Source of the DNA: Nitrospirota bacterium
GTDB lineage: Bacteria; Nitrospirota; Thermodesulfovibrionia; Thermodesulfovibrionales; Dissulfurispiraceae
Assembly: GCA_040758355.1 (NCBI GenBank)
Contig: JBFLWF010000024.1
Span: 1-35,557, forward strand
Length of the DNA stretch: 35,557 nt
Direction of reading: 5' to 3'
Positions 1 through 22,324 of this stretch are shown here, in pieces (the first letter of the stretch is position 1; each line of letters starts with the position of its first letter). A program made the translations under genes and the position numbers. The notes beneath the pieces were generated by a model, which was not told the DNA's origin, did not search any database, and worked only from the letters and a program-made list of their open reading frames with translations.

Positions 1-92
1 AAATTCGTGTTATACAGAGAAGGGCTTACGGTCTCAGAGACGAGGAGTATCTGCGCCTGAAAATACTTACATGTATGCTCAAGGAGATATAA
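1..92 (+). CDS. ISL3-family transposase, C-terminal fragment (runs off the window start)
   Basis: Frame from position 3 reads IRVIQRRAYGLRDEEYLRLKILTCMLKEI*, matching the ISL3 C-terminal (NNKI)RVIxRRAYG motif; TAA at 90-92. Confidence 0.85.
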   Translation, partial: IRVIQRRAYGLRDEEYLRLKILTCMLKEI

Positions 93-120
93 AATGACCC
101 ACTCGATTACACGAAGAGCC
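1..120 (+). mobile_element. Right end of an ISL3-family IS
   Basis: Transposase stop is followed by CCCACTCGATTACACGAAGAGCC; its reverse complement begins GGCTCTTCG, a typical ISL3 terminal inverted repeat. Confidence 0.8.
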
Positions 121-171
121 AAGATTACAAGTCTGAAAGATACTTCCAATAAAACAAGGATTGAAACTTCA

Positions 172-618
172 CAGAGCGGAAGTGCAGAAGCACGGAAGCT
201 CGGAAGCAACTTCTGATATAATTTCAATATGGCGAAATATAAAGACCTCATAGTCTTTCAGAAAGCTGATGAACTTGCCTTTCAGATATACAGACTTACA
301 GAAACTTTCCCAAAACATGAAACTTTTGGATTAACCTCGCAAATCAGGAGAGCGGCATTGTCTATACCTACCAATATTGTTGAAGGATATGCGAGAAAAA
401 GCAAGAAAGAACTTGCTCAATTTATAAATGTTGCACTTGGTTCTCTTGCTGAAACCGAATATCTTCTGGACTTTTCTAAAAAGCTTAACTATCCCAAGAC
501 TGATACCTATGAGATTGAAAAATTGCTTGAAGAAGTTGGAAAACTCCTCTGGAGCTTTTATCGCTCACTTTAAGACGTTTTTTACTTCTGAACTTCCGCA
601 CTTCCGAGCTTTTGCACT
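172..618. repeat. Inverted 8-mer tandem arrays flanking the four-helix-bundle gene
   Basis: Left: CGGAAGTG CAGAAGCA CGGAAGCT CGGAAGCA (~177-208). Right: ACTTCTGA ACTTCCGC ACTTCCGA GCTTTTGC ACT (~584-618), approximately the reverse complement. Confidence 0.85.
229..573 (+). CDS. Four helix bundle protein (23S rRNA intervening-sequence protein / TIGR02436-like, Avd-like fold)
   Basis: YKDLIVFQKA...FPKHETFGLTSQIRRAALSIPTNIVEG...GSLAET family signature. Confidence 0.93.
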   Translation: MAKYKDLIVFQKADELAFQIYRLTETFPKHETFGLTSQIRRAALSIPTNIVEGYARKSKKELAQFINVALGSLAETEYLLDFSKKLNYPKTDTYEIEKLLEEVGKLLWSFYRSL

Positions 619-651
619 ATTCGGGGCTACTTCCAATAAAACAAGGATTTA

Positions 652-1704
652 TTACAACGGCAGATACGCCTTTGGATTTAGATCTATGCCCGCGATATTT
701 CCTGTCTTGAAGTGATGATACCCTGCCGCTGCTATCATGGCCGCGTTATCCGTGCAAAAAGAAATCGAAGGCAGAAATAATTCAACTTCCCTTTTCTCTG
801 CCATTTCTTTCATGCGCCTTCTCAATTCACTGTTCGCAGAAACACCGCCTGACAATGCAATCTTTTTTATACCCTTCCTTACTACCGCCCATTCCACCTT
901 TCTCACGAGAACATCAACAACAGCGGCCTGAAAAGATGCAGCAATATCGTTTATGTTGATAGCTGACTGCTGACTGCTGACTGCTGACTTTACTGCCGTC
1001 TTTAATCCGCTGAAGCTGAAATCAAAGGATTCAGGGACATATGCCCTTGGAAAATCAAATGCCTTCGGGTCTCCTTCCCTGGCAAGTTTATCTATTACAG
1101 GTCCGCCTGGATAGCCGAGGCCAAGCAGCTTTGCCACCTTGTCATATGCCTCTCCTGCAGCATCATCCCTTGTCCTTCCGAGTTCTACATATTGTCCGAA
1201 GCCATTAACGATATAAAGGCTCGTATGTCCACCCGATACGATAAGAGATAAAAAGGGAAATGACAACTTGTTCTCAAGGAATACAGAAAACATGTGTCCT
1301 TCGAGATGATTTACTGCAACAATGGGTATTTTTTTTGCGTAAGCAATCGATTTTGCAAAGCCGCATCCAACAAGCAGGGAGCCTATCAGGCCCGGGCCGT
1401 AACAGACGGCAATTGCATCAATATCATCAAGGGTAATGCCGGCATTGTTTAATGCCTCGTCCACAACAGGCCATATCATCTCTATATGTCTTCTTGAGGC
1501 AAGTTCAGGCACTATGCCGCCGTATTTCTTATGTATGTCGGACTGCGAAGAAACTACATTGGAGAGTATTCGTTCTCCATCAACAACCACCGAAGCCGAT
1601 GTATCGTCGCAGGATGTATCGATGCCCAAAATCAGTGATGAGTGATGAGCGATGAGTGATGAGACGCTTAACGCATTACGGTCTTTAGCCTCCTCCATAT
1701 GCAT
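652..1704 (-). CDS. tsaD: tRNA threonylcarbamoyladenosine biosynthesis protein TsaD (start uncertain)
   Basis: ILGIDTSCDDT, GGIVPELASRRH, HLEGH, GRTRDDAAGEAYDK, TDNAAMIA motifs. Confidence 0.96.
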   Translation of the reverse strand: MHMEEAKDRNALSVSSLIAHHSSLILGIDTSCDDTSASVVVDGERILSNVVSSQSDIHKKYGGIVPELASRRHIEMIWPVVDEALNNAGITLDDIDAIAVCYGPGLIGSLLVGCGFAKSIAYAKKIPIVAVNHLEGHMFSVFLENKLSFPFLSLIVSGGHTSLYIVNGFGQYVELGRTRDDAAGEAYDKVAKLLGLGYPGGPVIDKLAREGDPKAFDFPRAYVPESFDFSFSGLKTAVKSAVSSQQSAININDIAASFQAAVVDVLVRKVEWAVVRKGIKKIALSGGVSANSELRRRMKEMAEKREVELFLPSISFCTDNAAMIAAAGYHHFKTGNIAGIDLNPKAYLPL

Positions 1705-4187: not shown

Positions 4188-4551
4188 TCTGTGCCCTCTC
4201 TCCCTTTTATTTATGAACTATACTTTATCCTTAATCGTGTGAATATTTTATGAAGGCAGTGTTTTCTTCATAAAGCGTTTGATGATACCATAATCCATAA
4301 TCTGTAGTCTAATATTTTTAGCATCCGTAATAATGGATGTAGAGCATGCTTCAAAAGCCTTTACAAAGGCTTAATCTTTATTTATGCCAGAGATAACTAA
4401 CGCATCACTCAATAAGTGAGCAATGTAGTAGATGACGGATTCAAGACAATGCAACTCAATATTCTGAGTGCAAAGTCTTTTTCAGCACACTCTACATCCA
4501 TATTTGAGATGTTTGGCCGCGGATTACGGCATATCATTACGAATTATGCTA

Positions 4552-19287: not shown

Positions 19288-19539
19288 ATGCAGTTGACCT
19301 CTGAAATAAAGACATCTTTAAAGCGTGAATATACGCTTTGTTCAAATGCCGCTTCTTTTTATAAAAAGGCATTAAAAGAATTTGAGCGTAAATATCATCT
19401 CTCCACGCAGGCATTTCTAAAAAAATTTGAGATGGGTCTGATGGGAGATGAAACAGACTATTTTGACTGGTATGCCTTTGCAAAGCTCCTTTCCCAATGG
19501 CAGAAGACCCAGTCTGCCATCCGCTCTGCTGTCCGATGA
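19288..19539 (+). CDS. Putative antitoxin-like small protein
   Basis: LKEFERKYHLSTQAFLKKFEMGLMGDETDYFDW pattern; stop overlaps the next ATG (ATGA). Confidence 0.7.
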   Translation: MQLTSEIKTSLKREYTLCSNAASFYKKALKEFERKYHLSTQAFLKKFEMGLMGDETDYFDWYAFAKLLSQWQKTQSAIRSAVR

Positions 19540-19916
19540 CCCTGAAATTCATTGAGACCATCGAAAAAACCATTGCTTCTAATCCAATCATCCTATCCTC
19601 CAACATCCAAAAGCATTTTGGCCCTGACTCAAAAACAGTTTATGTCATGGGCAGTATTATCTTTATAGACTCATCAGTCCTTGAGATAGCAATATTTGCC
19701 GCTGAAATCTCCACTGCAGTAATAATTGACAAATATAGGTTTCATTACATGGATAATAAAGGTGAGATGCTCTTCCGCTATGACAACGCCCCTCATCATC
19801 CCGAAATCCAGTCTTACCCTCATCATAAGCATATTAAAAACCTTGTTATCCCTGCTCATCTTCCAAATCTGAAAGAAATTCTGAATGAAATAAGCGCCAT
19901 GATTTTGAAAAAATAA
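19536..19916 (+). CDS. DUF6516 (TumE-like) putative toxin
   Basis: YRFHYMD...FRYDNAPHHPEIQSYPHHKH signature; translationally coupled start at 19536. Confidence 0.75.
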   Translation: MTLKFIETIEKTIASNPIILSSNIQKHFGPDSKTVYVMGSIIFIDSSVLEIAIFAAEISTAVIIDKYRFHYMDNKGEMLFRYDNAPHHPEIQSYPHHKHIKNLVIPAHLPNLKEILNEISAMILKK

Positions 19917-19933
19917 GCCATATCCCGCATTTG

Positions 19934-22324
19934 TTACAACACTCCAGCCTTTATCCTTTCCCTTACAATATACGCCTGTCCGAGGGATATGCCTGCGTCA
20001 TTGCAGGGAACCTTCTCATTGGTATGGACATTGAATCCGAGGGCTGAAAGCTGACTAACCGTGCCTTCCAGAAGATATTCGTTCTGGAAAACGCCGCCGC
20101 TTAGTGCGACATTTTTTATCCCGTATTTCTTGCTTATGCGATTGACAGCTTCTGTTATTACGTTGATCATTGTATTATGGAATTTGGCAGCAATGAGACC
20201 TTTGTCCTCCTTGAGTTTTACATCTTCAATTATCTGCAAAATCATCTTCGAAAAATCCACAATTATCGGTGAATGAGTAGATGGGTGAATGGGTGAATGG
20301 GCATTCATGTCTGAAATTTCAAAAGGATATGCTTCCTGCAAATTCGAATTTCGAATTTCGAATTTCGAATTTTGTATAATGTTTTCAAGTGCTATTGCAG
20401 CCTCGCCTTCAAAGGTATTTTCATCGCATATCCCTGCAATTGCAGATACTGCATCAAACAGCCTGCCTGCGCCTGACGAGAGAGGAGAAAATTGTTTGTT
20501 GCCGAGAAGCTTTAAGATGTTTTCAATTTTGTCTTTTCCGTACTTTTCAAGAAAACCTATAAAGTCGAGCCAATCCCAAACACTCCTGACTGCTGACTGC
20601 TGACTGCTGACTGCTTTTGCAATATAACTTATCGCTGTTCTCCAGCACTCCTTTATAGCCCTATCGCCGCCGGGCAGCGGAATGTATTTAAAATGGGCAG
20701 CCCTCTCAAACCCCTTTAAATCACAGATAAGGAATTCTCCACCCCAGAGATTTTTATCCGTGCCGTATCCTGTACCGTCAAGGGCAACCCCTATGACCTT
20801 ATCCTTCAAGCCTTTTTCTGCCATAACAGACGCTATATGCGCATAGTGATGCTGAATGCCTATCTTCTCAACTTCTGCCTTCTGTCCTAATACCCACTGC
20901 GTGGATAAATAATTGGGATGCAGGTCATAGGCAATGGCAACGGGATTTGCCCTGTAAACCTGTTTAAGATTATTCAGGGTTTCCTCAAAAAAAATCAGTG
21001 TCTCAAGATTTTCCATATCACCGATATGCTGGCTTACAATGGCATAACTACCTCTTGTGATTGTAAATGTGTTTTTAATATCAGCGCCACAACCAAAAAC
21101 ATCAGGGCCGTCATCATTCAGTTGAATCGGCTCAGGCACATAACCCCTCGCCCTTCTTATAAACTGGCGAGGTTTAATCACTGAATCATCCACCCTCATG
21201 AAAATATCCCTGTTATGCAGGAGAAAGGCATCTGCAATATCTGAGAGCTTTGATACCGCCTCGTCATTGCTTATAACTATCGGCTCCTCTGACAGGTTGC
21301 CGCTTGTCATAACTAAAGCAGAAAAATGAAAGGTTATAGGCGATAGGCAATGGGCAATGGGATAATGAAACAAAAGATAATGTAAAGGTGTATAGGGAAG
21401 CATAAAACCAAGATATTTGTTATTCGGAGCAATTTCGTCAGGCAGTTCCTTGACCTTTAGCCTTTGACCCTTGACCCTTTTCTTTAAAAGCACTATCGGC
21501 CTGCGTCTATCTGCAAGCAGTTTTTCCTCTTCATCAGAAACCTCGCAGAATTGTCTGACGGCTTCCGTATCAGGAGACATGAGGGCAAAAGGTTTATTGC
21601 TGCGTCTCTTCTTCTCCCTTAATCTCCTAACAGCATCTTCATTCTCAGCATCGCAGCAGAGATGAAAACCTCCGAGGCCTTTAATTGCAATAATCGCTCC
21701 CTGCTTTAATAATTCTATCGCTGCCTCTATCGGGTTCTGGCTGACGGCTGATGGCTGATGGCTGATGGCTAAAGTCAATTTCGGCCCGCATTCATGACAT
21801 GCATTGGGCTGCGCATGGAATCTGCGATTAAGAGGATTATTGTATTCCGAAAGGCATTGAGGACACATATCGAATACTGACATTGTTGTGTTGGGTCTAT
21901 CATATGGAACTCGCTGCGTTATAGAATATCGCGGCCCGCAGTTTGTGCAATTTATGAATGGATAAAGATGGCGTCTGTCAGATGGGTCGAGCAGTTCTTT
22001 CAGGCAGTCATCGCAAATGGAAATATCCGTCGAGATAAGCGTGAATCTCCCGGCATCAATGCTCTCAACAATTATGAAATCCTCATAGCCATTAAGAGGC
22101 AGCTCCTCTGTCTTAATGCTGTCTATTCTGGCAATCGGAGGGCATTTATTCTGGATGGATTGAAGAAATTCATTAAGGGATTCCCCTTCAGCCTCGATGA
22201 TGACCCCATCGGATGTGTTTTTTACATAACCTTTGAGATTAGAATTTTTTGCGAGGTTATAAATAAAAGGCCTGAAGCCCACACCCTGGACAATGCCTTT
22301 TATCGATATGAGTATGCGATTCAT
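19934..22324 (-). CDS. hypF: Hydrogenase maturation carbamoyltransferase HypF
   Basis: GIVQGVGFRPF acylphosphatase domain, CDDC/CTNCGPR and CPQC/CHECGP Zn fingers, QHHYAH, DGTGYG, NDAGISLGQA. Confidence 0.96.
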   Translation of the reverse strand: MNRILISIKGIVQGVGFRPFIYNLAKNSNLKGYVKNTSDGVIIEAEGESLNEFLQSIQNKCPPIARIDSIKTEELPLNGYEDFIIVESIDAGRFTLISTDISICDDCLKELLDPSDRRHLYPFINCTNCGPRYSITQRVPYDRPNTTMSVFDMCPQCLSEYNNPLNRRFHAQPNACHECGPKLTLAISHQPSAVSQNPIEAAIELLKQGAIIAIKGLGGFHLCCDAENEDAVRRLREKKRRSNKPFALMSPDTEAVRQFCEVSDEEEKLLADRRRPIVLLKKRVKGQRLKVKELPDEIAPNNKYLGFMLPYTPLHYLLFHYPIAHCLSPITFHFSALVMTSGNLSEEPIVISNDEAVSKLSDIADAFLLHNRDIFMRVDDSVIKPRQFIRRARGYVPEPIQLNDDGPDVFGCGADIKNTFTITRGSYAIVSQHIGDMENLETLIFFEETLNNLKQVYRANPVAIAYDLHPNYLSTQWVLGQKAEVEKIGIQHHYAHIASVMAEKGLKDKVIGVALDGTGYGTDKNLWGGEFLICDLKGFERAAHFKYIPLPGGDRAIKECWRTAISYIAKAVSSQQSAVRSVWDWLDFIGFLEKYGKDKIENILKLLGNKQFSPLSSGAGRLFDAVSAIAGICDENTFEGEAAIALENIIQNSKFEIRNSNLQEAYPFEISDMNAHSPIHPSTHSPIIVDFSKMILQIIEDVKLKEDKGLIAAKFHNTMINVITEAVNRISKKYGIKNVALSGGVFQNEYLLEGTVSQLSALGFNVHTNEKVPCNDAGISLGQAYIVRERIKAGVL

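Follow-up and report, generated by a model that had tools for sequence, protein, structure and literature searches.

A four-helix-bundle gene framed by inverted octamer arrays between CRISPR repeats in a Nitrospirota bacterium

Four-helix-bundle proteins of the PF05635 (TIGR02436) family are known from the S23p intervening sequences of 23S rRNA. In the element of Coxiella burnetii, heptamers precede the ATG of an open reading frame (ORF) of that family, and a 28-bp stem is cut by RNase III (PMC4990558). Short tandem arrays have also been described in Xanthomonas and Nostoc, where arrays of the GGGAATC and GGGGA(C/T)T heptamers mostly count four units, frequently form convergent inverted pairs and are found close to the ends of genes, sometimes in frame; they were attributed to G-quadruplexes and said to be unlinked to mobile elements (PMC4692102). 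In REPIN-RAYT systems, a gene flanked by inverted short repeats accompanies many gene-less intergenic inverted pairs, and RAYT is a transposase (PMC3337134). The Avd protein of diversity-generating retroelements has a related four-helix fold and forms a pentamer that binds nucleic acid between its protomers, all five of which contact RNA (10.1101/2023.10.23.563531). Here we analyze a cassette with features of each of these, found at positions 173–618 of the window, that is, the whole stretch of 35,557 nucleotides of contig JBFLWF010000024.1 (assembly GCA_040758355.1, Nitrospirota bacterium): a PF05635 gene between two inverted octamer arrays, themselves between two repeats of a CRISPR array. 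In what follows, G000 is the genome of the window, G001 and G002 belong to the same genus, L numbers are extracted loci and C numbers are contigs.

The gene occupies positions 229–573 of the forward strand and encodes 114 amino acids. It matches PF05635 over its full length (E 7e-36, 123 bits for a cut-off of 33.8) and TIGR02436 (119 bits, cut-off 24). Among solved structures, 2GSC (E 4.8e-20 by sequence) and 2RLD, each with five chains, are the nearest relatives; a single-sequence structure model (pLDDT 67) has four helices, with the same two structures as best fold matches. By analogy with these five-chain structures, the protein is predicted to be a pentamer. An Avd-related family, PF22296, also matches (E 3e-8), and matches to the Avd fold reach E ~0.05. 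Against the 7 closest relatives, pN is 0.08–0.15 and pS 0.67–0.92, with synonymous sites saturated; the gene is conserved and under purifying selection. The nearest proteins sit in other phyla. Contigs from a second study (run X2) cover the gene and the end of the neighboring tsaD with two substitutions, so that the gene is not an assembly artefact. A 40-aa ORF at 94–216 was dismissed as a gene, as it spans an insertion sequence (IS) end, a repeat and an arm.

The upstream arm (173–207, forward strand) is purine-rich and has four to five units of an octamer with a fixed GAAG core; the downstream arm (584–618, reverse strand) is the reverse-complement array. In an ungapped alignment of one arm with the reverse complement of the other, 24 of 35 positions match. 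They close the folded RNA of 141–649 with the ORF in the loop (z -2.25; 1 of 100 shuffles is equally stable), which bears out the stem proposed in a preliminary description of this DNA. The PF05635 gene is the only ORF between them, and no transposase gene is found there, also as had been proposed. Taken singly, the arms are weak: Tandem Repeats Finder (TRF) gives scores of 37 and 35, with detection only after the threshold is dropped to 30, and a stricter array finder misses both. Their unit is specific to the locus, since the pattern of three R-GAAG-N3 units has two matches in the 2.77-Mb genome, namely these two arms. At its inner end, the upstream arm has a small hairpin resembling a terminator (200–216, forward strand), a consensus match only (1 found, 0.3 expected).

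An extended -10 element, TGnTATAAT, is predicted at 214–222 on the forward strand, 6 nt before the ATG, and no ribosome site precedes the ATG. Of 72 related genes, 13 have the motif 5–8 nt upstream of their ATG, among them 6 of the 7 closest, versus 74 of 2359 control ORFs; none of those 13 genes has a ribosome site. A standard sigma-70 scan finds no full -35/-10 pair before the gene, and the upstream arm overlies the -35 position of the predicted promoter. From these signals, a leaderless transcript that starts past the upstream arm is predicted.

The CRISPR setting escaped the preliminary description. To the left, an intact 37-nt CRISPR repeat occupies 131–167 (forward strand; Rfam CRISPR-DR7, 38.7 bits, over the gathering score). 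To the right, a degenerate terminal repeat occupies 618–654 (forward strand) and overlaps the stop codon of tsaD, with 22 nt exact at 628–649. The exact direct repeat 141–162/628–649 belongs to the CRISPR repeat, which rules it out as a target-site duplication. The upstream arm begins 5 nt past the left repeat, and the end of the downstream arm meets the start of the right one; thus the cassette replaces a spacer, the last one of the array. The intact repeat is the only copy in the G000 assembly with up to 8 mismatches allowed, and for scale, this genome has ~2450 ORFs and one intact CRISPR repeat. In G000, a contig end truncates cas1, and no cas2, cas4 or leader was found in the assembly. Upstream of the repeat is the right end of an ISL3-like insertion sequence (1–120, forward strand; a 29-aa tail with PF01610 at E 0.021, under the cut-off). 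This 120-nt end is shared by ~27 contig ends of the genome and breaks the assembly beside the repeat. The G000 locus thus looks decayed or unassembled.

At the same site, the identical repeat forms arrays of 17 copies in G001 and 22 copies in G002 (terminal copy exact over 31 nt in G002). In G001, the cas genes and leader are to the left of the array, and a contig of run X1 links leader-like letters to position 131; the cassette slot is therefore the trailer end of the array. The content of the slot varies. G002 has a different family gene there (38% identical) with 7-mer arms. G004 has, in L003:390-1230, a lone arm of the same 8-mer family, a degenerate repeat, a MazE-like antitoxin with a PIN-like gene, a degenerate repeat and the end of tsaD. 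G001 has toxin–antitoxin, small-ORF and IS cargo with an intact CRISPR array, and G019 has the degenerate repeat alone. Among 29 other tsaD loci (1.5-kb flanks), only that of G002 has a family gene. Two further arrangements are seen in G001 (L073). At C56:63540-64475, two CRISPR repeats enclose a toxin–antitoxin-like gene pair, upstream of which are a 9-mer array and the extended -10 motif, and arms may thus carry other cargo; at C56:58420-58860, another family cassette with inverted arms sits exactly between cas1 and cas2.

The CRISPR setting recurs in other phyla. The cross-phyla sample consists of the best 80 of 187 relatives in GTDB genomes. Seven of these 80 (L081, L085, L087, L095, L098, L121 and L130) adjoin regularly spaced CRISPR-type repeats; they were chosen by eye from 16 flagged loci. 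An eighth, L082, is flanked on each side by remnants of the L087 repeat. Of the 7 CRISPR-side relatives scanned, which do not include L098, only L130 passes the Rfam gathering score for CRISPR, and the others were judged by spacing and repeat ends. Four of these 8 loci, from two phyla, encode proteins among the 7 closest; the repeat sequences of the loci are unlike. Flanking repeats are near-full in L130 and G002 and partial in the window, L081, L082, L085, L087, L095 and L098. The cassettes of L085 and L098 have ordinary spacers behind them; the last slot is thus common and not obligatory. In L081, L095 and L098, gene-less or internally deleted copies stand behind a further repeat copy (L095 retains the last dozen codons); the empty forms thus derive from loaded ones. 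In L098, L087, L082 and L085, CRISPR repeats alternate with different cassettes, some loaded, some truncated and some duplicated, in a manner resembling integron cassettes.

Inverted arms are widespread in the family. In G000, inverted arrays flank all 6 PF05635 genes, and the unit, a 7-, 8- or 9-mer, is a different one for each. The single GxxExxY gene of the genome (L164, G000:C7:41242-41586) has inverted 9-mer arms as well; as a member of a nuclease family, it is a candidate for a cutting activity in trans. In relatives (83 matches in 41 genomes, 14 of which have none), 30 loci were taken, of which 2 lack an anchor and one is G000's own C19 copy; the inverted-flank score is reached at 27 of the 28 scored, versus 136 of 3172 control ORFs of G000. 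Among the best 80 relatives across phyla, 59 reach it, and 45 have tandem arrays on both sides. The arm words follow the proteins. An arm 5-mer is shared in 79% of 14 protein pairs at 80% identity or above, versus 4% of 541 pairs below 55%. The trend is the same between phyla. Over the 65 usable loci of the 80, the Mantel r is 0.375, a value reached in 0 of 2000 permutations. Two groups of a quick tree share a unit: 12 rows with a GGAAG 8-mer and 8 rows with an AGGCT 7-mer (SH-aLRT 88 and 92). That tree, with half of its forks unresolved and a long branch for the G002 protein, was used for these two groups only. A non-coding word is thus kept while synonymous sites saturate, which points to selection on the word. 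Recognition of the arm word by the cassette's own protein would be the simplest cause.

Filled and empty alleles exist, as the preliminary description had anticipated. At an overlapped stop/start junction, 5 of 5 relatives lack the C2 cassette (421 nt), and the junction shows no target duplication. The C39 and C20 cassettes are each missing in 4 of 4 alignable relatives; at C20, G004 retains one arm. The preliminary idea thus survives both of its refuting tests, on the flanks of other family members and on filled/empty alleles. For arrays, 356 kb of G002 (~87% identical where aligned) gave an anchor for 49 of 400 sites of G000. The same unit is present at 14 of them, another unit is in place at 20, 11 are absent with a shorter interval and 4 are absent or decayed.

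Gene-less arrays are numerous, as first described. Against a block-shuffled control, the genome has 312 arrays of period 7 (control 1), 130 of period 8 (control 1) and only 21 of period 9 (control 5). The stricter finder gives 13 arrays within the window. Of the 463 arrays in the genome, 347 have 4–5 units and 21 have at least 6; there are 156 distinct units, most of them without G-tracts. By crude gene calls, 246 of the 463 are deep inside ORFs and 154 are at most 60 nt from a stop. Within 160 nt, 157 arrays have an inverted partner (12 of 926 in a random control) and the other 306 have none. The pairs are polarized: purine arrays have the partner downstream in 72 cases and upstream in 7, and pyrimidine arrays have it upstream in 46 and downstream in 2, so that in sum the purine arm comes first 118 times versus 9. 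Such a near-fixed polarity is as expected of element ends. A rule that all units contain AG was not retained, since AG occurs in 81–83% of distinct units and other dinucleotides are nearly equal. The C19 cassette shares its word with 32 arrays and the C20 cassette with 20, and the cassette of the window with no further one. The other arrays of the window have other units, and the commonest units of the genome have no cognate gene in this assembly; the arrays are at most remains of sister cassettes, and the supposition that they are empty sites of this cassette is not supported. In regions chosen on contig size, from genomes that include non-independent kin, 68 arrays were counted in 626.5 kb of 13 gene-bearing genomes versus 3 in 400 kb of 11 genomes without the gene (p 0.0015; ~14-fold).

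Several protein-coding genes contain such arrays. On the reverse strand, tsaD (652–1704) has two in-frame 7-mer arrays with other units (962–989 and 1634–1663), and at these array loops relatives have different units or none. In the loop 954–989, there is a single 7-mer array here and there are other units in congener orthologues (L073, L074); in G001 and G006, the tsaD loop holds whole in-frame hairpins with a C/G-run palindrome nested within. Farther along the window, hypF (19934–22324) has at least 5 in-frame 7/8-mer arrays with different units.

How does the cassette compare with the described systems? With the S23p intervening sequence, it shares the protein family, an ORF in the loop of a ~28–35 bp stem, tandem repeats before the start codon and a patchy occurrence. 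It differs in lying outside rRNA (Rfam finds only the CRISPR repeat and a tRNA in the window), in its 8-mer arms, its place between CRISPR repeats and a predicted promoter inside the arms, and by the hundreds of gene-less arrays in the genome. Unlike the Xanthomonas and Nostoc arrays, those found here have about 150 units, mostly lack G-tracts and are tied to subfamilies of one protein family. Unlike REPIN-RAYT, there is no catalytic domain, the arms are tandem 7–9-mers and many arrays are inside proteins; REPs are palindromes of ~20 nt or more. Unlike Avd, the protein scores below the Avd cut-offs (41.6 for 80 with NF033474, 34.4 for 40 with a second model), no match to the reverse transcriptase family PF00078 was found in the 99%-complete assembly, and no template/variable repeat was seen. 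A CRISPR spacer is a product of Cas1–Cas2. Like a spacer, the cassette stands between two repeat copies with at most 5 nt of other sequence on either side; unlike one, it is ~450 nt long, protein-coding and hairpin-ended, and its right repeat is degenerate. Unlike an insertion sequence or a miniature inverted-repeat transposable element, there is no target duplication at C2, and six family genes have six different arms.

The reading that we favor, with slightly more confidence than doubt, is that of a passenger cassette without a nuclease, whose arms are recognized by its own pentamer and which the machinery of the host inserts at gene junctions and between CRISPR repeats. Gene and mirror-image 8-mer arrays would travel between bacteria as one unit with no cutting enzyme of its own. 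The predicted five-part ring would read the four to five units of each arm, which may be bound as DNA ends or single-stranded DNA more probably than as a selected RNA stem. Uptake could be by transformation (a ComEC gene is present in the genome). Insertion would be carried out by host machinery, with entry into CRISPR arrays by repeat-templated integration, either through Cas1–Cas2 or through recombination between repeats; bare hairpins and single arrays would come from sister cassettes via internal deletion and in-place replacement. This reading is carried by the architecture, the purine-first polarity, the filled and empty alleles, the different cassette in the slot of a congener, the deletion derivatives beside loaded copies, the arm words that follow kinship and the scarcity of arrays without the gene family. 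A published case speaks for it as well: the start codon of XCC0516, the solved member of the family, is spanned by a four-unit array of a heptamer with 186 copies in its own genome (PMC4692102, supplement 2, row 15). The array is entered there without comment, and the main text is silent on XCC0516. The CRISPR array is then one recurrent landing place among several (with stop/start junctions and tolerant protein loops), not the function of the cassette. The mobile cassette of the preliminary description is retained in this form.

Several observations weigh against it. The cassette has no catalytic gene, and gene junctions show no target duplication. No dispersed copy of the octamer of this cassette exists elsewhere in the genome, and the commonest units (42, 22 and 20 arrays) match the arms of none of the 6 family genes. 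Replacement by another unit (20 of 49 sites) exceeds plain absence (11 of 49), unlike what simple insertion would give. The inverted-arm score is failed by 21 of the best 80 relatives, and same-direction arrays occur as well in 34 of the 80. Linkage of gene and arms by itself also yields some co-variation between them. In the array-density sample, besides the choice of regions and the kinship noted above, 3 of the 13 gene-bearing genomes had no array in the 11.5–40 kb sampled. The single passing Rfam score among the CRISPR-side relatives belongs here too. Lastly, the published table gives no inverted partner for the XCC0516 array (PMC4692102).

A more specific version of the passenger cassette is possible and is put forward tentatively. 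The pentamer would read the arms with one unit per subunit and pass hairpin-ended DNA to host integration, including Cas1–Cas2; CRISPR arrays would act as integron-like platforms, and left-over arms would be the source of the 7/8-mer repeats in many bacterial genomes, also in protein loops. By analogy with Avd, which touches RNA with all five protomers, one unit per subunit is plausible.

An RNA-level intervening sequence, comparable to the S23p of 23S rRNA, is unlikely. There, the arms would pair in a read-through transcript, RNase III (or Cas6 at the flanking repeats) would cut the gene out, and the protein would act on RNA. The closing stem formed by the flanks and the presence of an RNase III gene in the genome agree with it, as do the heptamers before the ORF and the RNase III-cut 28-bp stem of Coxiella (PMC4990558) and the binding of an RNA stem–loop by Avd (10.1101/2023.10.23.563531). 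However, in the stems of 55 loci, G–U type mismatches on the sense strand number 72 and A–C type ones 73, a near-equality that does not point to selection for an RNA helix; an argument from G–U bias was dropped, the bias being absent. The upstream arm is also missing from the predicted leaderless transcript, 306 of the 463 arrays have no inverted partner within 160 nt, and cutting would be harmful at the 246 deep in ORFs (crude calls). Candidate excision joints at 168–652 (X4) and 167–626 (X6) have sides of fewer than 30 letters and middles that are unknown, and they give no evidence of excision. The self-excision of the preliminary description is thus not supported, like the empty sites in the window.

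It is quite unlikely that the arrays form a regulatory system of the host, with ring-shaped repeat readers controlling termination or stability near gene ends and with gain and loss as ordinary turnover. TRAP is such a reader. The 154 arrays within 60 nt of a stop, the conservation of the gene, the array density that follows gene presence and the upstream arm over the -35 of the predicted promoter would suit a regulator. Against it stand the same unit kept at only 14 of 49 shared sites in G002 (~87% identity), the lack of a match in 14 of 41 related genomes, the nearest proteins in other phyla and the commonest units without a cognate gene in G000.

A role as CRISPR accessory is very unlikely. 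Here, the subfamily would be kept at array ends to serve the locus, by capping the pre-crRNA or by tuning processing or adaptation. The gene of the window and 4 of its 7 closest relatives do lie between CRISPR repeats, and unrelated cassettes occupy the same slot of two congeners, but 72 of the 80 relatives and 5 of the 6 genes of G000 are not beside repeats. The G001 array is intact with toxin–antitoxin and IS cargo in those slots, and the G000 locus itself looks decayed or unassembled.

That the arrays are slippage products or quadruplex-type signals, with the gene between two of them by chance, has a precedent in the heptamer excess published with no gene link (PMC4692102) and is refuted for this locus by the family arm counts (27 of 28 loci versus 136 of 3172 controls), the fixed polarity, the unit unique to the flanks of this gene and the units mostly without G-tracts.

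Two other features of the window stand apart. A TumE-family toxin–antitoxin gene (19497–19916) lies between a sensor kinase and hypF. At ~4340–4540, a dispersed element of ~200 nt is filled or empty by comparison with G001, G002 and G004 and has no Rfam match.

The pieces of this picture are in print. In a search that did not extend to subscription journals or bioRxiv supplements, we found no paper that connects dispersed arrays or CRISPR slots with the family. The arms give a large family of proteins, structurally solved but without a function, a specific ligand that can be tested, and they give the heptamer excess, reported as unexplained (PMC4692102, introduction), a source that is open to test. 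The copy described here is a clean case, with a unit unique in the genome and conserved with the protein across phyla, in a slot bounded by CRISPR repeats; because of those borders, it can be tested directly whether an entire gene is taken up in the manner of a spacer. If the protein reads its own arms, the family would be tied to the 7- and 8-base repeats of many bacterial genomes.
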